Below are positions 2,233 through 41,501 of a stretch of DNA of 64,000 bases, piece after piece (the stretch's first letter is position 1; every line of letters begins with the position of its first letter). Origin of the DNA: Escherichia phage JS98; sequence record NC_010105.1, one strand, 5' to 3'. Both the position numbers and the translations under genes were made by a program. Under the pieces are notes generated by a model, which had not been told where the DNA came from, searched no databases, and was given only the letters and a program-made list of their open reading frames with translations.

Positions 2233-2436
2233 TCAATTCAGGTTACGTTTAAAAATATCTGCTACTTCAAGGAGCTCTTCCTTAGTAGCGATGTCGTTGA
2301 GTATTTTATATCTGATTTCTTTAAAGCGTTCTTTAAAATCTTCAGCTGCATTGATATCAAAAAATCTCTGGATTAGCCGGAATTCTTTGTGGACAGCTTT
2401 ATCAAACAAATCAATGTTGACTTTAAAGTTTGTCAT
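2233..2436 (-). CDS. hypothetical small protein (rIIA.1 position)
   Basis: 67-aa minus-strand ORF tiled between rIIA and next gene. Confidence 0.4.
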   Translation of the reverse strand: MTNFKVNIDLFDKAVHKEFRLIQRFFDINAAEDFKERFKEIRYKILNDIATKEELLEVADIFKRNLN

Positions 2437-2746
2437 TTTTAACTACCTCATGTTGAACATATTCTCTGGTAGAACCCAGTTCAGCCAGAATTCTTCTCAT
2501 AGAACCCATTGTACTTTTGTGCTCTCTGTGGCGATACAATATCTCTAGAACCTTTTCCTGGACAACAGGAGAGAGCGCCTGGTTATCTTTAATCTTTAAG
2601 GCAATAGATTTTACAGCCTTGAGATATTCTAGTCCCTTGCCGCTTGTAATCACTACTCCTTCGTCTTTACAATTGCGAATTGCGGTCTCCATAAAAGACA
2701 AAGCCAAGTTGTCAGTGTTCACTATACTATTATCTTGCATAATCAT
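2423..2746 (-). CDS. hypothetical protein
   Basis: 107-aa minus-strand ORF, overlaps downstream ORF by 14 nt. Confidence 0.4.
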   Translation of the reverse strand: MIMQDNSIVNTDNLALSFMETAIRNCKDEGVVITSGKGLEYLKAVKSIALKIKDNQALSPVVQEKVLEILYRHREHKSTMGSMRRILAELGSTREYVQHEVVKNDKL

Positions 2747-2818: not shown

Positions 2819-3024
2819 AATTAGTTGCTTGAATCGACTCTATAAACTTGACCACGGGTTTGGTAAACTTCGCCGTCCCATGTTTCAACTGTGATAGTAA
2901 CGTACTCGGCAAAAAGAGGACGTGTATCTGTCCAGAGATAACCATATTCACCTGTGACGAGCGTAACCCAGTACTTTCTCATAAAGTCTCCTTTTATACG
3001 GTACTCATGTACCGTACGTATTTA

Positions 3025-14726: not shown

Positions 14727-15266
14727 TTAATAACCTCGGTCTTGACGAGCAAAGTTCTCGGCATTTTTCAGGTAATACAGTTTAAAGATTTCTTCAGCGG
14801 TCAGTCCAAGACCCTGGAACATATTCAGAACAAAGTGCAGAATATCAATCATTTCGAATTTAATTTCGAGCTGGTCTTCAGGAGACAAATCGTTAATCAG
14901 GGTTTCACGACGTTCAGCATGTTGAGCTTTCCAAGGCTTCCATACTGCAGATGCATCTTTTTCACCATTGCTCATACCACCAAGAGAAGTCAGAAGTTCA
15001 CGGAATTCGTCATCAATATAATCTTTCTGGTTGCGAAGCCAATCGACAACTTCACCTGCAGTGGCCAAATCATCAGGATGACGATTATATTCAGGCTTAT
15101 CTTTAGCTAAACGAACCTGCAAAGATTTCTGCATATCAAGCATAACCTGCAGAGGGTCTTTATCTTCGTGAATCAGAGCATTAAAATAAGCTTCTTCAGC
15201 TTTATCGGCACCGGCAATCAGTTGAGAACATTCATTAAAATGAGCCATTATATTTTTCCTTATCAA
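14727..15266 (-). CDS. 56: dCTPase/dUTPase gp56 (MazG-like)
   Basis: 179 aa; EIKFEMIDILHFVLN MazG-like core; position next to soc as in T4. Confidence 0.8.
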   Translation of the reverse strand: MIRKNIMAHFNECSQLIAGADKAEEAYFNALIHEDKDPLQVMLDMQKSLQVRLAKDKPEYNRHPDDLATAGEVVDWLRNQKDYIDDEFRELLTSLGGMSNGEKDASAVWKPWKAQHAERRETLINDLSPEDQLEIKFEMIDILHFVLNMFQGLGLTAEEIFKLYYLKNAENFARQDRGY

Positions 15267-21866: not shown

Positions 21867-22068
21867 TATATTTTTCCATAGGCATCATTATATTTTTCTC
21901 ACGTTTTAAGATAGGGTAATTATATCACTTCACAGCTACAGCATTACTTAATTCCTCGGTTGATAGCCTTATCGACTATCTTCCGAACTTCTCGTTTCTC
22001 GAGCCACACTAATAATAGCAAGGCTCCGAAAGAGAATAATAACAAACCTATAAAAAGCAATAGAGGAC

Positions 22069-22962
22069 CTAGCATACTACGTCCTCATAACGTGGCATTT
22101 CGTATTCAGAATGAATATTGGCACCGAAATAAATGAATTCAGCCAGACCAGGATGGAATACTAAACCTGGGTTCTCATGATAAATGATATGTGGTCTTGA
22201 TTTCAGAATTTGATAATATTCAACCTTACTCGGTTTGAATTTAATAATCTCTACATCAGGACGATAGTCTTCGCGCTTAAATGAATCATTCGGGTCGGTG
22301 ATATAAAGACGAGCACCTTCAGCAGCAGCTTGGTCTACAACTCTTTCGAATTGATAGCACTTATCCGAAATACGGAATGGATGGAAAATACCATCAATTT
22401 TAATAGGCGCTAGACCTTCAGAGTAACGCTCAATTACTGCAGGATTAATTACCTTTTGGTCTACAAAAATCTTATCAGAGGATGCACCTCGTGACACCAG
22501 GACGTCTTTCTGGCATTGGTTCAGGACTGTAGTATAAAGTGAACGTTCAACTGAAGCCACATCAATATCAATGAACTCGTCGATATAATAACGAGGAACT
22601 TCAGGGTCCATTGTGATATTAAAGTTGAATTGTACAGTATGAGCACCATCATAACCTGTGATATCGGTTACCAGTCCTGAGCAATCGTAGTATTCGATTA
22701 GTGAATCGACTACAAACTCATTTTCAGACCAGAAATGTTTACGGGTTTCATAAGCATTTTCTTTATACCAAAGTGGTACGAAATTCAGTTCTGGGAATAA
22801 TTCAATGCATTCTTTGATATCGCTCGAATTTCTAGGATAAGCCAGATAATCACCTGGACGGGCACGATTTAAATGGAGTTGAAAATTACCGTCCTTAAGG
22901 ACGGCATATTCACCTGTTTCGTAACTACGCATACTGAAAATAGGAACGATAAACAAACTCAT
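22069..22962 (-). CDS. orphan 297-aa protein in the beta-glucosyltransferase slot (candidate DNA-modifying transferase)
   Basis: ATG 22962 overlaps stop of hydroxymethylase gene (ATGA); lies between uvsX and 42 where T4 has beta-gt; no resemblance to T4 beta-gt as recalled. Confidence 0.6.
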   Translation of the reverse strand: MSLFIVPIFSMRSYETGEYAVLKDGNFQLHLNRARPGDYLAYPRNSSDIKECIELFPELNFVPLWYKENAYETRKHFWSENEFVVDSLIEYYDCSGLVTDITGYDGAHTVQFNFNITMDPEVPRYYIDEFIDIDVASVERSLYTTVLNQCQKDVLVSRGASSDKIFVDQKVINPAVIERYSEGLAPIKIDGIFHPFRISDKCYQFERVVDQAAAEGARLYITDPNDSFKREDYRPDVEIIKFKPSKVEYYQILKSRPHIIYHENPGLVFHPGLAEFIYFGANIHSEYEMPRYEDVVC

Positions 22963-23657
22963 TTCAGGAAACCTCGGACGTAGTCAAAATCACGTTCAAA
23001 CACGTGTGCACTTACCATGGTGTGGGAATATGTACCCAAACCGACACCACACTGTTCAGCAATAAATGCCATCAGTTTACCCTGCAGATAGAAATCCAGC
23101 TGCATAACAACAGCACAGTTCTGCGAACGCATATGGGTGTGTGCATACAACCGTCCGTCACGAATATAATACGTTACCGAATCGGTACATGGATATTCTA
23201 AGGATTCATCAGAATCAAGGAGGGCTTGGTCTTGTTCTTGGAGAATCTGGAACACGACTCTTCGCGAGTTAGCCTTTTCTTTAAGCTCTTTAAGTAGGGC
23301 TGGGAGCTGGGCCACAATTCGAGGTCCATAGAAAGTGTTGAAGTTTGCAGGCAATACGTCACTTTTCGGCTTATCAATGAACTTAGCAACATTAGGATAT
23401 TCCTTAAATGCTTCGGCAGCGTCAGTACCACCAGAAATCATAAATTTCCAAAAGGATTCGGCATATTCATAACTAATACGATTGATACGTGGGTCGGTGA
23501 ATTTATAGGTGCTTGCATCCAGTACTTCTACAGAAGCAGAACCAATTTCATAACAACGTCCGATACGAGAATCAACTGCAAACTGTGGAGCTTCCAGGAT
23601 TTCTTCGTTCATTTGTTTAAATGCGTTTTCAAAACTAACAGCGGTAATGTGTTTCAT
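22959..23657 (-). CDS. 42: dNMP hydroxymethylase (thymidylate synthase superfamily), gene 42-like
   Basis: 232 aa; NSRRVVFQ...CTDSVTYYIRDGRLY...MRSQN core similar to T4 gp42. Confidence 0.75.
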   Translation of the reverse strand: MKHITAVSFENAFKQMNEEILEAPQFAVDSRIGRCYEIGSASVEVLDASTYKFTDPRINRISYEYAESFWKFMISGGTDAAEAFKEYPNVAKFIDKPKSDVLPANFNTFYGPRIVAQLPALLKELKEKANSRRVVFQILQEQDQALLDSDESLEYPCTDSVTYYIRDGRLYAHTHMRSQNCAVVMQLDFYLQGKLMAFIAEQCGVGLGTYSHTMVSAHVFERDFDYVRGFLK

Positions 23658-24190
23658 TTATTCACCTTATTTTCAATATATTCGTTCAGACGTTTTAATT
23701 CTACCATATCAACATTAAGCAAATTATTATGGCCGTCATGGTTTAAGATTTTAAACACGTTTTCAAAACATGTTTCGTATTGCCGGATAGTTAGGTTGAA
23801 CTCATCTTTGGTTAATTTAATAAGGTCGTCTTCGAAGTCTTCGTCTAATGGATTACGAGTTAAAATAACCTCGATAACGTTAAATTCGGATTTAAACCCT
23901 TTCCAATCTTCCAGTTCTACATAAGGGTCCATTTCACCACGAAGGAATCCTGAGTAAACAATATTACTTGGATAACCACGGTCAAGGATATAAACGAAAT
24001 TAGGGTCTAAAAACTTATACAGAGTTTCAACTAAAGCCTTATCGTTATCAGTTCCTAATGAAATACACTTGCCATTAATCTTTTTAGGAAAATCAATAAG
24101 GCGGTATTTCTTATTGGATAACAGATTTTTAATTAAAGTGGACTTCCCGGAATTATCCGGGCCGTCTATAACAATGATTTTTGGATTCAT
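23654..24190 (-). CDS. P-loop kinase (dNMP/nucleoside kinase-like)
   Basis: 178 aa; Walker A GPDNSGKST; DRGYPS (DRY-like) motif; ATGA coupling at both ends. Confidence 0.6.
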   Translation of the reverse strand: MNPKIIVIDGPDNSGKSTLIKNLLSNKKYRLIDFPKKINGKCISLGTDNDKALVETLYKFLDPNFVYILDRGYPSNIVYSGFLRGEMDPYVELEDWKGFKSEFNVIEVILTRNPLDEDFEDDLIKLTKDEFNLTIRQYETCFENVFKILNHDGHNNLLNVDMVELKRLNEYIENKVNK

Positions 24191-24570
24191 GGATGATAGG
24201 CCTTATAACTATCAAGAGTTCCTTCACGAACCATTTCTTTAAAGTGGTCAGGACGGATTGCTCGGTCATCGATGATAAAAGTATAACTCGGCTTGTGTGT
24301 AAGCAAATTGTGATATTTCAATCCAATTTTTTCAAGGTTCTTAACCAATGCAGGAACTACTTCAACCAAGATTCGACCTGGGCCACATGAAGTCATGCCA
24401 CGGGCGGTGAACAATGTAATCTCGTACCCTTCATCATAAAGCTTATTAATCATGGACACCATTTCGGTGTCCGGTTTAAAGTTCTCATAATCACGGTCAT
24501 GGTTCCAAATCGTGATTGTGTTATCGATATCAAAACATAAATGTGGCTTATTTTCTACTCGATGCGACAT
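24187..24570 (-). CDS. HAD-superfamily phosphatase
   Basis: HAD motif I CFDIDNTIT, motif II LFTAR; start placed at ATG 24570 (TAATG coupling); 24585 is alternative. Confidence 0.6.
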   Translation of the reverse strand: MSHRVENKPHLCFDIDNTITIWNHDRDYENFKPDTEMVSMINKLYDEGYEITLFTARGMTSCGPGRILVEVVPALVKNLEKIGLKYHNLLTHKPSYTFIIDDRAIRPDHFKEMVREGTLDSYKAYHP

Positions 24571-26243
24571 TAAATTTTCTTCCATTGTTTGTGGAGTTCA
24601 GTAGAACCTGTAGGTTTATATTTTACACCAGTTTCCTGGTCAAGCAAAACCCACTTATCAGGACAACGAGTAATAATTTGGGCCGTAATAGGGTCACGAA
24701 CTTCATCGACAAATTCACCCGTAATAAGCTTACGCTTACGAGGATGCCGCTTCAGCAGCACACTCAGTTGGTACAAACCGTTATAATAAGCACCCAGAGC
24801 TTTCAGAGGGTTATTCTTAAAGTACCCTGCCAGAGCCATCCAAATAACAGCAATCCAGAGCTTGTGCTTAAATGTGCACATAGGGATATCGTCTAAAGGC
24901 ATAACCTTTTCGATATCAACGAATACACGAGTTCCGTTACGAGTTAATCCACCCCATAGAGGGTCTGAGTTAAATTTGTCATAGCCATCGATAGAATAAA
25001 GCACCTTAGCTTCATCATAAATCGCAGGGCCTTTAGAACTATTACCGAAATAACCACGTGGGTCGATGATTTTAATATCACCTTCGTCCGACAGCATAAT
25101 ATTACTGTAGTGCGGGTCACCATGAATAAGTTGGTACGGTTCTTTATGTTCAGACAGAATTTCTAGTGCATGGCGAAGAAGTTTTTCAGGGTCGCCTACT
25201 TTGAAATCGTTAACATGGGTAATGCCTTGTGGAGCAAAGCCTTCAATCAACCCAGCAATAGAAGCATTACGAATAAGGACCTTGTCCAACACTTCTTTCT
25301 TAACATCAGAATACCATTGTTCATCGGACGGGTTATCAATAGTTCCACCAAATGAACGTAATGCACTAATGACCTTATAAACCATGAGGACTTTAGTTTC
25401 TTTGGACATAAACCGGTATGCATCTGCCATGGTACGACCAAAGATACGTTCCATTTTAATGAATTCGCCTGGAGAAAAGTCTACAATGCTAGGAACGAAT
25501 TCAGAATCAATAGAATTATACCAATTGATTTCTTTAGATTGAATTTCTTTACCTAATTCGTTAGTTGGTACTTTAATAGCCAGATTCTCGGTGAACTCTA
25601 ATTTATTAAATTCACGGTTAATTTCAGAATCTTCATGGGCTTTAGCCAGTTTCAATTTGTCACCGACATCAACTACAAAGTCCAGTTTACGTTCAGTCAA
25701 ATAGACCATTGAATCCAGGTTATCGGCAAGGTCTTCACCATAATTAGAACGGTCGAAACCTGTCCAATTGGCCACCTGATACAAACCAACTACGCCACCG
25801 CCCGTACCAATTTCACGTAAGTACGGTTCTTCAAATGTAAAACGACAGTCAGTTCCATAGGTATAACAGTAGTCATTACCCCATTCAACTTTATGACCGA
25901 TAGGAATGATGTCACACCAGTTAAACAGGACATTATGGCCAATGATATCTTCGGCAATACAATCGATAGCATGAGCTGAACCATTAGCAACATCAACGTT
26001 ACGAATAGTGAATTTAGGCTTATCACCAGTAATCATATTAATGGATTTAATATAGCCTTTAACGAGGTCGTTAAATTTGCTGTGAATAACCAGAATAATT
26101 TCATCTGATTGGTTACTATACAAATCATACAAATGCTTTAATACCGTATGTTGTTTGTAGTTAACCAATACCTTCGGGATTTCGTTAGTAATTGGATACA
26201 ACCGTGAGCCAAGACCTGCGCCTAAAATAACAACCTTTTTCAT
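24570..26243 (-). CDS. bifunctional sugar-phosphate nucleotidyltransferase / APH-ChoK-like kinase
   Basis: N-terminal MKKVVILGAGLGSRLYPIT (RmlA/MurU-type NTase); C-terminal HGDPHYSNIML...IIDPRGY (Brenner kinase motif); ATG 26243 with SD GAGGAA. Confidence 0.65.
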   Translation of the reverse strand: MKKVVILGAGLGSRLYPITNEIPKVLVNYKQHTVLKHLYDLYSNQSDEIILVIHSKFNDLVKGYIKSINMITGDKPKFTIRNVDVANGSAHAIDCIAEDIIGHNVLFNWCDIIPIGHKVEWGNDYCYTYGTDCRFTFEEPYLREIGTGGGVVGLYQVANWTGFDRSNYGEDLADNLDSMVYLTERKLDFVVDVGDKLKLAKAHEDSEINREFNKLEFTENLAIKVPTNELGKEIQSKEINWYNSIDSEFVPSIVDFSPGEFIKMERIFGRTMADAYRFMSKETKVLMVYKVISALRSFGGTIDNPSDEQWYSDVKKEVLDKVLIRNASIAGLIEGFAPQGITHVNDFKVGDPEKLLRHALEILSEHKEPYQLIHGDPHYSNIMLSDEGDIKIIDPRGYFGNSSKGPAIYDEAKVLYSIDGYDKFNSDPLWGGLTRNGTRVFVDIEKVMPLDDIPMCTFKHKLWIAVIWMALAGYFKNNPLKALGAYYNGLYQLSVLLKRHPRKRKLITGEFVDEVRDPITAQIITRCPDKWVLLDQETGVKYKPTGSTELHKQWKKI

Positions 26244-26303
26244 TATCTGTTCCTCAAGTGAATGTAGGTACATTATACACTATTTTTAATAAATTTCTAT
26301 TGC

Positions 26304-26804
26304 TTAAATCTTATCTTTACCGTATTCCATGCACTGTTCTACTGCAGCAGGCACTTTGGTCTTAAGCTTGTTGATTTGTTTCTTATAATCACGGGCCTTA
26401 TCGAAGCTCTCGGTTTCGAGCATTTCGTAATAACGAGCCTCATGGACAGAAATCTGTAAATTGATATGGTTTACACACATAGAATACAGTTTCTGCTTTT
26501 TGTACAAATCATCTTGGCGCTTCATTTCTGCCTGGTGTTTGGCTAGTACCGCTTCACGCTTAGACTCTTGTTCACGTTGGAATTCGATTTCCCTTTGAGC
26601 ATATTTTGCACAGTTATTACCACATTGATTATTAGCTCGGGTGTACACAAGTCCAGAACCGGCACGGAATTTCATTTCGCCGTCGAATTGTTTCTGTTCA
26701 GCTGCGATACGAGCTTTACCAACTTCATCAGCAGAAACTGCACCACCGTATTGGACTGCGCAACCTGATAGGAGCATACTCATTGCGATAATTAACTTTT
26801 TCAT
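26304..26804 (-). CDS. putative lipoprotein
   Basis: 166 aa; MKKLIIAMSMLLSGC lipobox. Confidence 0.5.
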   Translation of the reverse strand: MKKLIIAMSMLLSGCAVQYGGAVSADEVGKARIAAEQKQFDGEMKFRAGSGLVYTRANNQCGNNCAKYAQREIEFQREQESKREAVLAKHQAEMKRQDDLYKKQKLYSMCVNHINLQISVHEARYYEMLETESFDKARDYKKQINKLKTKVPAAVEQCMEYGKDKI

Positions 26805-39891: not shown

Positions 39892-40099
39892 CTTTTTTCA
39901 GCTTTCTCACTTCTTTACGAAGTTGGCGATTCATTTCATTCTTAACTTCAGAATCAACGCCACGCATACGTTTCCACTTGTCAGAACGGAAGATATTTTC
40001 TTCAACTCGTTCCTGACTTACGCCGTCTGGTGCTTTACGACGTCCGGAATAATAAAAATCTTTTACAGACAATTCTTTACGACGGATAGTTTTACCCAT
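39806..40099 (-). CDS. hypothetical basic protein
   Basis: 97-aa ORF; start uncertain. Confidence 0.3.
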   Translation of the reverse strand: MGKTIRRKELSVKDFYYSGRRKAPDGVSQERVEENIFRSDKWKRMRGVDSEVKNEMNRQLRKEVRKLKKDVYNDDEPDYNTSHRVAKRKSNECYRYS

Positions 40100-40101
40100 A
40101 G

Positions 40102-40356
40102 TTACCTCAACAGTTTGTATCCAATAAGGTTTTTAATGTACTGGATGTCTTTGATATCCAAATCCAACTTAAGGTCTTTCAGACGGTCGGCCAGGGTCAA
40201 AAAGGTTACATGCTTCCAATTCTTCACTGGGCAGCAATAAGTCTTAGGACCATTTGCAATTTCAATATTCTTATCAGTGACGGTGAGAAAAATTAGGCGC
40301 TCATCATCCAGATTAAGGGTGACGACATTTTTCATTGAATGCAATTTCAGGCTCAT
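40102..40356 (-). CDS. hypothetical protein
   Basis: 84 aa; ATGA overlap with upstream small ORF. Confidence 0.4.
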   Translation of the reverse strand: MSLKLHSMKNVVTLNLDDERLIFLTVTDKNIEIANGPKTYCCPVKNWKHVTFLTLADRLKDLKLDLDIKDIQYIKNLIGYKLLR

Positions 40357-40529
40357 AATTTAATTTCCTTAGCTATCGAACAAAACACACCGCGGTCACA
40401 AATCATTTTAATATTAAGGTCAATTATGGTATACCACACGTCCAGGCTAGATATTTCAGTTACTAGAACAGCTTTGCCGTTGATTGAATAATACTGGTTG
40501 ACTTTAATTTCTTTATCTTGGATAGTCAT
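40353..40529 (-). CDS. hypothetical small protein
   Basis: 58-aa ORF not in track; SD GAGGAGA; downstream of early promoter. Confidence 0.4.
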   Translation of the reverse strand: MTIQDKEIKVNQYYSINGKAVLVTEISSLDVWYTIIDLNIKMICDRGVFCSIAKEIKL

Positions 40530-40558
40530 AATGTTCTCCTCATGTGTTGATAGGATAG

Positions 40559-40587
40559 ACTATAACACGTGAGGAGAGGAAGTAAAC
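40559..40587 (-). promoter_or_regulatory. early promoter (GTTTAC-N17-TATAGT)
   Basis: gtaaac 40582-40587. Confidence 0.55.
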
Positions 40588-40588
40588 A

Positions 40589-40906
40589 CTAATCTTCAAT
40601 TAAATCTCGGTCATAGCCAAGTTCAATCAAAAGGGATTTGAAGGCAGGAATATTTTCTATTTTCTTATTATCAACAAAGATTACAGGATAGCGTATAGCT
40701 AAGCTCTTGAAGCCAGCACGTTTGGCCAATGATACTATAAGAGGCTTATCATATACTGCGCCTGACGGCGTCTGGTTAATTACAGGATAGAAAGTATATT
40801 GGATAGAAAGGGAATTTAGGAGCGATAGAACTGCAATGCACCCTGGACAGCGCATGACCGTCTCAGGGATACCGTAAATCTCAATTTTAGTTAACTTTTG
40901 GTCCAC
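40589..40906 (-). CDS. glutaredoxin/NrdH-like thiol-disulfide protein
   Basis: CPGC active-site motif after beta-strand KIEIYG; proposed GTG start 40906 with SD AGGAG; ATG 40954 is alternative. Confidence 0.5.
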   Translation of the reverse strand: MDQKLTKIEIYGIPETVMRCPGCIAVLSLLNSLSIQYTFYPVINQTPSGAVYDKPLIVSLAKRAGFKSLAIRYPVIFVDNKKIENIPAFKSLLIELGYDRDLIED

Positions 40907-41183
40907 AGGAAATAACTCCTTGGTAGTCCCAAGTTTTGATAACTTCGTCTTCATTAGTTCCATACGGGATGTAAATCTGGATAAGGAACCCAGTATCATC
41001 AAAAGAGAAGTAGACGGTAGGTTTAATACCGTGAATCTCTGAAAGAGCATAGATGTCCTTGAGGTCATCTTCCTTACCGATAAAGAATTCTGGGTTCAGG
41101 TCACAGTCATGGAAGTACCATTCTTGGCCAAACTTGTCCCAAGCCGCCCAATCAGTAGCTACATACTCTTCAAAACGTTTCAT
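40887..41183 (-). CDS. hypothetical protein
   Basis: 98-aa ORF. Confidence 0.4.
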   Translation of the reverse strand: MKRFEEYVATDWAAWDKFGQEWYFHDCDLNPEFFIGKEDDLKDIYALSEIHGIKPTVYFSFDDTGFLIQIYIPYGTNEDEVIKTWDYQGVISCGPKVN

Positions 41184-41407
41184 TCTTTCACCTTCATCAT
41201 TTTAGAAATAACACTATGAACAGACTGGATTCGTTTTTCGAACTCAGACTCTTCAAGACCCTTTTCAGTACTCAGCGCACCAATCATCACAAACAGCAAT
41301 CCAAATGGGATAACCAGGATTAAAAGGCACACAATAAACAGGACAAATGTAATATTGGCCAGGATATCAGAAGCAGCATTACGAAATTTATTCATACGAT
41401 AGTCCAT
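41180..41407 (-). CDS. hypothetical membrane protein
   Basis: 75 aa with one TM segment. Confidence 0.4.
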   Translation of the reverse strand: MDYRMNKFRNAASDILANITFVLFIVCLLILVIPFGLLFVMIGALSTEKGLEESEFEKRIQSVHSVISKMMKVKE

Positions 41408-41501
41408 GTATTAGTTACAACAAATAACCATTGAGCAGGATACTCAACACCCATGCGCCGGATAATATCATTCATAGATTCGGTTAAGGCGTAAAAATTA
41501 A

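Follow-up and report, generated by a model that had tools for sequence, protein, structure and literature searches.

A five-gene operon of Escherichia phage JS98 predicted to serve the arabinosylation of 5-hydroxycytosine in virion DNA

The DNA of phages RB69 and DLP3 contains mono- to tri-arabosylated 5-hydroxycytosine with the sugar ether-linked at C5 (Lee et al., PMC13326640), and the former assignment of the RB69 base as arabinosyl-5-hydroxymethylcytosine (arabinosyl-hmC) has since been corrected in print. Phages Thanatos and LC53 have a single transferase and mono-arabinosylated DNA, and arabinobiose is found in the DNA of Bas46 and NP. The system is already known, as the pathway was published in 2025-2026 for RB69, HY126, DLP3, Bas46/47 and LC53, and Dhakaviruses are listed as carriers, being named among the genera with the cluster in a synteny figure of NAR 2026 (Lee et al., PMC13326640). 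In the literature of 2010, further DNA modification in JS98-type phages was an open question. Here, we analyze an operon on the minus strand of Escherichia phage JS98 (22069-26243) within a stretch of 64,000 nucleotides (sequence record NC_010105.1), which as a whole is called the window.

The operon is very likely (with a probability of about 85%) the Dhakavirus version of the pathway replacing cytosine in virion DNA by 5-O-arabinosyl-5-hydroxycytosine. Direct support comes from the homology of all genes to characterized clusters, an active-site signature and a GT-B fold, and from the lack of further cluster genes. All five proteins match the RB69 cluster at 38-80% identity, and the operon lies between DNA polymerase gene 43 and uvsX, the same slot as the RB69 cluster. 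The gene order of T4 in this slot is uvsX, segA, beta-gt, 42, imm, imm.1 and 43, in agreement with the first-pass annotation of the window, which had placed beta-gt and gene 42 between uvsX and imm and had proposed a DNA hypermodification operon in their place, possibly with an arabinose-type sugar. Both proposals are supported by the five homologs in the RB69, HY126 and DLP3 clusters, and a comparison with RB69-type arabinosylating phages, which the annotation had recommended, found all five genes to be homologous. The description as five translationally coupled genes holds as well. All five open reading frames (ORFs) were confirmed at their coordinates, the TAA stop of the first gene overlaps the start of the second (TAATG at 24570), and ATGA overlaps join the remaining genes at three junctions. 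We regard all five ORFs as real genes because their homologs are conserved, and not because of ORF statistics. The genes of the operon, and one gene outside it that the proposed pathway would draw on, are as follows (aa, amino acids):

24570..26243, minus strand: fusion protein of 557 aa, with an N-terminal sugar-1-phosphate nucleotidyltransferase and a C-terminal APH/choline-kinase-like sugar kinase; homolog of HY126 AfhE and RB69 gp53:52
24187..24570, minus strand: small HAD-family phosphatase of 127 aa; homolog of HY126 AfhF and RB69 gp51
23654..24190, minus strand: thymidylate-kinase-like P-loop nucleotide kinase of 178 aa; homolog of RB69 gp45
22959..23657, minus strand: thymidylate-synthase (TS)-superfamily protein of 232 aa, predicted 5-hydroxy-dCMP synthase; homolog of RB69 gp48
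22069..22962, minus strand: GT-B fold glycosyltransferase of 297 aa; homolog of RB69 gp47+46, DLP3 gp79 and Thanatos TH1_063
14727..15248, minus strand: gp56 dCTPase/dUTPase, outside the operon; 91% identity to RB69 gp56 over 173 aa, ORF confirmed

All enzyme activities in the proposed pathway are predictions from homology to proteins of HY126, RB69 and DLP3. The gp56 enzyme would supply dCMP and remove dCTP, as full replacement of cytosine needs, and the TS homolog would hydroxylate C5 of dCMP in a reaction that depends on flavin and O2 in homologs. A phage nucleotide kinase and the host NDP kinase could then provide 5-hydroxy-dCTP for incorporation into DNA by the phage polymerase. The phage kinase step might be performed by the thymidylate-kinase-like protein, by a T4 gp1-type dNMP kinase encoded elsewhere in the genome, or by both. 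In the sugar branch, the C-terminal kinase domain of the fusion protein would convert D-arabinose-5-phosphate to the 1,5-bisphosphate by adding a phosphate at C1, the HAD phosphatase would take off the 5-phosphate to leave arabinofuranose-1-phosphate, and the N-terminal nucleotidyltransferase domain would generate UDP-arabinofuranose. The 297-aa GT-B enzyme would finally attach arabinose to the 5-hydroxyl. Arabinose-5-phosphate likely comes from the host enzymes KdsD or GutQ because a phage isomerase is missing, and the product is likely mono-arabinosylated because a second transferase is missing. Mono-arabinosylation is thus predicted, and not di-arabinosylation as in RB69 and HY126.

The identity of the acceptor base rests on the TS homolog, which is 80% identical both to RB69 gp48 and to the crystallized HY126 enzyme (PDB 9iqu; E 2e-125 for the match to 9iqu/9iqc). 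PDB 1b49 is matched only at E 1.5e-4, and identity to T4 gp42 is 24.5% over 159 aa. In an alignment with E. coli ThyA, T4 gp42 and RB69 gp48, the catalytic Cys is kept (LEYPC), with Glu at position 143 (L143E) and Asp at position 177 (N177D, dCMP specificity) in ThyA numbering. Position 169 is occupied by Asn (D169N, within MRSQN), whereas both ThyA and T4 gp42 have Asp, and the motif MRS(Q/E)N is present in all seven cluster TS homologs collected. The D169N substitution is diagnostic of 5-hydroxy-dCMP synthases, and nine further homologs with D169N, taken from diverse phages, all gave 5-hydroxydeoxycytidine (5hodC) in vivo (PMC13326640). RB69 gp48 and DLP3 gp80 produce 5-hydroxy-dCMP (5hodCMP) using a flavin cofactor, with the oxygen coming from O2 as traced by 18O2 incorporation (PMC13326640). 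Given the 80% identity to the HY126 and RB69 enzymes and the D169N signature, the acceptor is likely 5-hydroxycytosine (5hoC) and not hmC. The protein had initially been described as a gene 42-like hydroxymethylase, a description that we replace by a predicted 5-hydroxy-dCMP synthase. The sugar is then expected to be ether-linked directly to C5 via the 5-hydroxyl.

The sugar donor would be produced by the fusion protein and the HAD phosphatase. The fusion protein is homologous over its full length to its counterparts in RB69, HY126, DLP3 and Thanatos. Identity is 44% to RB69 gp53, 41% to RB69 gp52 and 43% to the HY126 protein, and rises to 80% and 72% for the proteins of Klebsiella phage Marfa (Marfavirus) and Proteus phage SJ_PmiM (Bragavirus), respectively. 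Pfam recognizes NTP_transferase at residues 13-110 and APH at residues 356-427, and the motifs GAGLGSRL, HGDPHYSN and IDPRG are conserved. The HAD protein carries the catalytic motif DIDNT (DxDxT), is 62% identical to RB69 gp51 and to the HY126 protein, and matches PDB 9iqw (E 5.3e-54) and PDB 1xpj (E 4.5e-12). The RefSeq name of the HAD protein, 'phosphoheptose isomerase', is a misnomer and probably stems from the ADP-heptose-like logic of the pathway. In the published summary of the HY126 work, AfhE is bifunctional, acting as a kinase on arabinose-5-phosphate and also as a UDP-arabinose pyrophosphorylase, and AfhF is a Mg-dependent phosphatase acting on the 1,5-bisphosphate (He et al. 2026, summarized in PMC13326640). 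The order of events in characterized homologs is given there as C1 phosphorylation of arabinose-5-phosphate, 5-dephosphorylation by the HAD enzyme, and formation of UDP-arabinofuranose (PMC13326640), and the Thanatos homolog of the fusion protein was found to be essential (PMC12838424). By homology, the HAD protein of the window is predicted to remove the 5-phosphate of arabinofuranose-1,5-bisphosphate. The initial idea that a kinase, a nucleotidyltransferase and a phosphatase jointly build an NDP-sugar therefore agrees with the homologs AfhE and AfhF, which make UDP-arabinofuranose from arabinose-5-phosphate. The phosphatase had been assumed to act first, but in characterized homologs the kinase domain precedes the HAD enzyme.

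The 297-aa protein is 70% and 65% identical to RB69 gp47 and gp46, which represent a single gene split by a sequencing error. Identity is 67% to the HY126 homolog and 69% to the Marfa homolog, and all family-invariant residues are kept. Although first considered an orphan, the protein has homologs in 117 protein clusters and 351 phage records. A confident structure model suggests a GT-B glycosyltransferase, with the same top structural match as published for RB69 gp46:47, and the gene follows immediately downstream of the TS homolog, as do those of gp46:47 and DLP3 gp79. The protein is predicted to be the first, and here the only, arabinosyltransferase. The first-pass annotation had this protein transferring a sugar to hmC; the transferase function is upheld by the GT-B fold and by homology, while the acceptor changes to 5-hydroxycytosine on account of D169N.

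The P-loop kinase is 38% identical to RB69 gp45 (E 6e-35). It matches PHROG 761 'thymidylate kinase' (E 1.5e-39), a PDB search with its family profile retrieves YorR (E 2e-4) and thymidylate kinases, and it carries a Walker A motif (GPDNSGKS) and a DRG motif. These matches are consistent, if at low resolution, with a thymidylate-kinase-like nucleotide kinase acting in the nucleotide branch rather than in sugar activation. The role of anomeric sugar kinase, once given to this protein, would instead fall to the C-terminal domain of the fusion protein. In phage AnYang (L015 1930-2466), RefSeq cuts the kinase gene to 279 bp. The truncation is an annotation artefact, as tblastn recovers an intact 178-aa frame with 96% identity to the window.

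Further cluster genes were searched for with the isomerase, the U32-like protein, gp49 and the extra transferases of RB69, HY126 and DLP3 as queries, together with T4 beta-gt. By tblastn, neither the arabinose-5-phosphate isomerase (RB69 gp55) nor T4 beta-gt has a match in the window or the complete JS10 genome. Equally without a match in the window and the whole JS10 genome are the U32-like protein (gp50), gp49, and a second or third arabinosyltransferase (RB69 gp3; DLP3 gp76/77). The gene alpha-gt is absent from the JS10 annotation, which has a-gt.2 to a-gt.5, though no sequence search for alpha-gt was made. The same annotation includes gp1, denA, denB and alc, so that nucleases against cytosine DNA are annotated outside the operon. 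Among the clusters compared, the window has the smallest version, with five genes and no isomerase, U32-like gene or second transferase. Additional arabinosyltransferases are an optional feature that sets chain length. The isomerase is missing from Marfa and SJ_PmiM too, so it is a common gene of the cluster without being universal. The gap between rIIA.1 and gene 39, where RB69 and HY126 carry gp3, contains in the window a 107-aa ORF (2423-2746, minus strand) and a 53-aa ORF (2821-2982, minus strand). Both are unannotated in RefSeq JS10 and neither is glycosyltransferase-like.

Several points weigh against arabinosylation of 5-hydroxycytosine by this operon. No chemical analysis of any Dhakavirus DNA was found in the accessible literature. 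The fusion protein is just 42-46% identical to each characterized homolog, and the isomerase that could not be found is present in nearly all other such clusters. For the predicted first arabosyl transfer by the 297-aa family, the accessible literature contains no reconstitution. On 5hoC-DNA, DLP3 gp79 showed no activity, and its authors did not distinguish between addition at the nucleotide level and at the DNA level (PMC13326640). Thanatos TH1_063 was reported to be a UDP-xylose pyrophosphorylase in vitro (PMC12838424). Finally, the gp1-type kinase of RB69 already phosphorylates 5hodCMP, which bears on the need for the thymidylate-kinase-like protein with its predicted role. TH1_063 (L009 9961-10863) is the homolog of the 297-aa protein (window 22069-22962), and the pyrophosphorylase report fits a GT-B fold poorly. 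The TH1_063/gp79 family is taken as the first arabinosyltransferase in PMC13326640, but its activity could not be shown there.

The order of glycosylation and replication might differ from the proposed pathway. The GT-B enzyme could act on 5-hydroxy-dCMP, with the P-loop kinase phosphorylating the arabinosyl nucleotide and the polymerase incorporating it, so that the first arabinose would be added before replication. We consider this unlikely, though several observations would fit. The glycosyltransferase and kinase genes are paired in every cluster examined: they overlap in DLP3, CHI14 and Thanatos, and lie side by side in RB69 and HY126. Next to a gp1-type kinase that handles 5hodCMP, as in RB69, a second kinase seems superfluous. 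DLP3 gp79 alone did not arabinosylate 5hoC-DNA, with the level of addition left undistinguished. The DNA glycosyltransferases that the 297-aa protein resembles are also larger (366-400 aa). To our knowledge, however, all known phage DNA glycosylations are post-replicative. Later additions of arabinose take place on DNA, and the published abstract, for its part, has the bridging oxygen coming from 5hoC in DNA.

A separate question is which sugar donor the fusion protein produces. Fusion proteins fall into a type A (HY126, CHI14, DLP3 and Thanatos; 52-73% identity among themselves) and a type B (window, Marfa and SJ_PmiM; 70-80%), with only 42-46% identity across types. No such split is found in the TS homolog, the HAD protein or the glycosyltransferase. 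Type-B clusters have the gene order fusion-HAD-kinase, and none of the three inspected (window/JS10, Marfa and SJ_PmiM) has the isomerase. In keeping with this, the fusion has matches in 366 phage records compared with 276 for the isomerase, and Klebsiella and Proteus do not occur in the organism names among the isomerase matches listed. Within Bragavirus, the two cassettes have been swapped. Phage phiP4-3 has the isomerase and a type-A-like fusion (L017 6321-8650), and SJ_PmiM has a type-B fusion alone (L007 660-2318); the flanking genes are 92-94% identical between the two phages, compared with 46% for the fusion proteins. The type-B fusion might hence be a functional replacement of isomerase plus type-A fusion, using another host precursor or generating another NDP-pentose, which we view as quite unlikely. 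If true, the sugar on the DNA of Dhakavirus, Marfavirus and some Bragaviruses, or the route to it, would be one so far undescribed for the arabinosyl-hydroxycytosine family. For Dhakavirus DNA in particular, replacement of arabinose by a different pentose, or its supply by another route, is rather improbable on the present evidence. Across the Bragavirus swap, the local HAD, kinase, TS homolog and glycosyltransferase genes are retained, with 74-86% identity for the HAD protein, the glycosyltransferase and the TS homolog, so a type-B product must suit the same downstream enzymes. Since downstream genes are kept and the cassettes look interchangeable, we favor the same product from both. The glycosyltransferase of the window is about as close to that of HY126 as to that of Marfa and retains the invariant residues. 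E. coli itself makes arabinose-5-phosphate via KdsD and GutQ, which could replace a phage isomerase. Moreover, the isomerase and fusion genes are adjacent, hence their joint gain or loss may reflect linkage alone.

Arabinosylation of 5-hydroxycytosine is also preferred over the initial model, in which a gene 42-type dCMP hydroxymethylase makes hmC and the sugar is placed on the hydroxymethyl group. Pfam finds only a generic thymidylate-synthase domain in the TS homolog, several GenBank records label the gene a dCMP hydroxymethylase, and RB69 was so described in 2018 (PMC6024577). Nevertheless, Asn in place of the Asp of T4 gp42 and ThyA at position 169, the much closer relationship to enzymes shown by 18O2 incorporation to make 5hodCMP than to T4 gp42, and the printed correction of the RB69 assignment make hmC highly improbable. 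A role of the genes in cell-envelope precursor synthesis (capsule, heptose) is suggested by the database labels 'capsule biosynthesis protein' and 'phosphoheptose isomerase' and by the resemblance of the nucleotidyltransferase domain to LicC/RmlA-type enzymes, but is next to negligible because the labels were transferred automatically, translational coupling joins the genes to that of a dCMP-modifying enzyme, the cluster is essentially confined to T4-like phages that carry the TS homolog as well, and the homologs are biochemically tied to DNA arabinosylation.

The start codons of the first two genes differ from those in a mechanical ORF list, which extends the fusion to 26273 and the HAD gene to 24585. 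The starts at 26243 and 24570 are better supported because the ATG at 26243 is preceded by a Shine-Dalgarno sequence (GAGGA + 7 nt), the ATG at 26273 sits within a TATAAT box, and the alignments of the RB69 homologs begin at 26243 and 24570. The 5.5 kb around the operon share 98.5-98.8% identity with Escherichia phage JS10 and its near relatives (genus Dhakavirus), and at least 80% of this region is covered in 50 phage records. Two further features border the operon:

26272..26299, minus strand: sigma-70-like promoter candidate TAGAAA-16-TATAAT with 10 of 12 consensus matches, directly upstream of the first operon gene
21944..22075, minus strand: 43-aa single-pass membrane ORF, with an ATGCTAG overlap with the stop of the glycosyltransferase gene

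Scans of the region showed no enrichment of promoters (19 promoter-like sites compared to 19.6 expected from shuffles) or of terminators (3 terminator-like sites compared to 4.1 expected). The promoter at 26272-26299 is a candidate by consensus match only and is not relied on. The 43-aa ORF (MLGPLLLFIGLLLFSFGALLLLVWLEKREVRKIVDKAINRGIK) is unannotated, has a GAGGA Shine-Dalgarno sequence upstream of its ATG, and finds no family match in Pfam or PHROG. JS10 and IME341 retain the ORF, most changes being synonymous, phage AnYang lacks it cleanly (about 125 bp), and we predict an accessory gene at the operon end. Between imm and the operon lies a 166-aa lipoprotein-like ORF (26304-26804, minus strand) with a signal peptide ending in LLSGC. 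This ORF matches PHROG 1754 (unknown function) and is 28% identical to CHI14 gp046, which is likewise polymerase-proximal.

Among the genes of the arabinosylation clusters, conservation across genera is highest for the U32 'peptidase'-like gene (RB69 gp50), with 77-94% identity among loci (L005 8787-9947, L006 8130-9290, L007 3485-4651, L009 11428-12564, L010 5796-6965 and L017 9826-10992), yet Dhakaviruses lack it, as do Acinetobacter phages such as DLP3. The U32 family includes the O2-independent hydroxylases RlhA, TrhP and UbiU/V, hence the U32-like gene could provide an anaerobic route to 5-hydroxycytosine. In the published cluster description, the gene is listed as 'sugar or heterocycle reductase' only (PMC13326640). 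Across the JS10-type genome (L003, L001, L014, L011-L013), no homolog was found of NrdD/NrdG, the anaerobic ribonucleotide reductase of T4. The T4 genes lie between nrdH/55.8 and gene 49, and the counterpart in the window is the nrdH-49 region at about 40000-41500. Since both NrdD/NrdG and the U32-like gene are missing and the homologous hydroxylases need O2, there is a hint of a strictly aerobic nucleotide metabolism.

The modification protects phage DNA against restriction enzymes, against the Brig1 glycosylase and against type I CRISPR-Cas, and Dhakaviruses are phage therapy candidates. With five genes, the window genome provides the smallest natural gene set for the modification among the clusters compared, and the swap between type-A and type-B fusions constitutes a natural experiment on sugar donor supply.

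Compared to known systems, the operon shares most with the RB69 gp45-gp55 and HY126 Afh cluster (Mosigvirus-type), which occupies the same slot between the polymerase gene and uvsX and has five homologous genes in common with the window. Identity declines from the TS homolog (80%) over the glycosyltransferase (65-70%) and the HAD protein (62%) to the fusion (41-44%) and the kinase (38%). RB69 and HY126 have an isomerase (gp55), a U32-like gene (gp50), gp49 and a second arabinosyltransferase (gp3), whereas the window is without all four. The kinase gene lies between the HAD gene and the TS homolog in the window but after the glycosyltransferase in RB69 and HY126. Marfa and SJ_PmiM share the fusion-HAD-kinase order, the type-B fusion and the lack of an isomerase with the window, but keep the U32-like gene. 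The accessible literature contains no chemical characterization of Marfa or SJ_PmiM DNA. The same five core genes are also found in DLP3 (gp76-gp83; Acinetobacter) and Thanatos (TH1_060-065; Shewanella), whose fusion proteins are of type A in contrast to the type B of the window. The U32-like gene is missing from DLP3 as well, but this phage does possess the isomerase, and its two extra transferases lead to tri-arabinose. In Thanatos there is one transferase, and 5-hydroxycytosine carries one pentose.

More distant systems resemble the operon in purpose or mechanism. T4 combines gp42 with alpha- and beta-glucosyltransferases, and by analogy the two pathways would differ in the group placed on C5 (hydroxymethyl in T4, hydroxyl in the window) and in the chemistry used (folate compared to flavin and O2). 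T4 uses UDP-glucose of the host, whereas the sugar in the window pathway is a different one and the donor would be phage-made. The bacterial ADP-heptose route proceeds through the isomerase GmhA, the kinase/adenylyltransferase HldE and the HAD phosphatase GmhB, and AmgK-MurU works likewise. The logic is similar to that proposed for the window, with an isomerase, an anomeric kinase generating a bisphosphate, a HAD phosphatase leaving the 1-phosphate, and a nucleotidyltransferase fused to the kinase. Published structure matches of the RB69 and DLP3 homologs also include a GmhB-type phosphatase and MurU. The likeness is one of mechanism and not of membership, as the kinase domain of the window is APH/choline-kinase-like and not ribokinase-like, and the product would modify DNA and not lipopolysaccharide or peptidoglycan.

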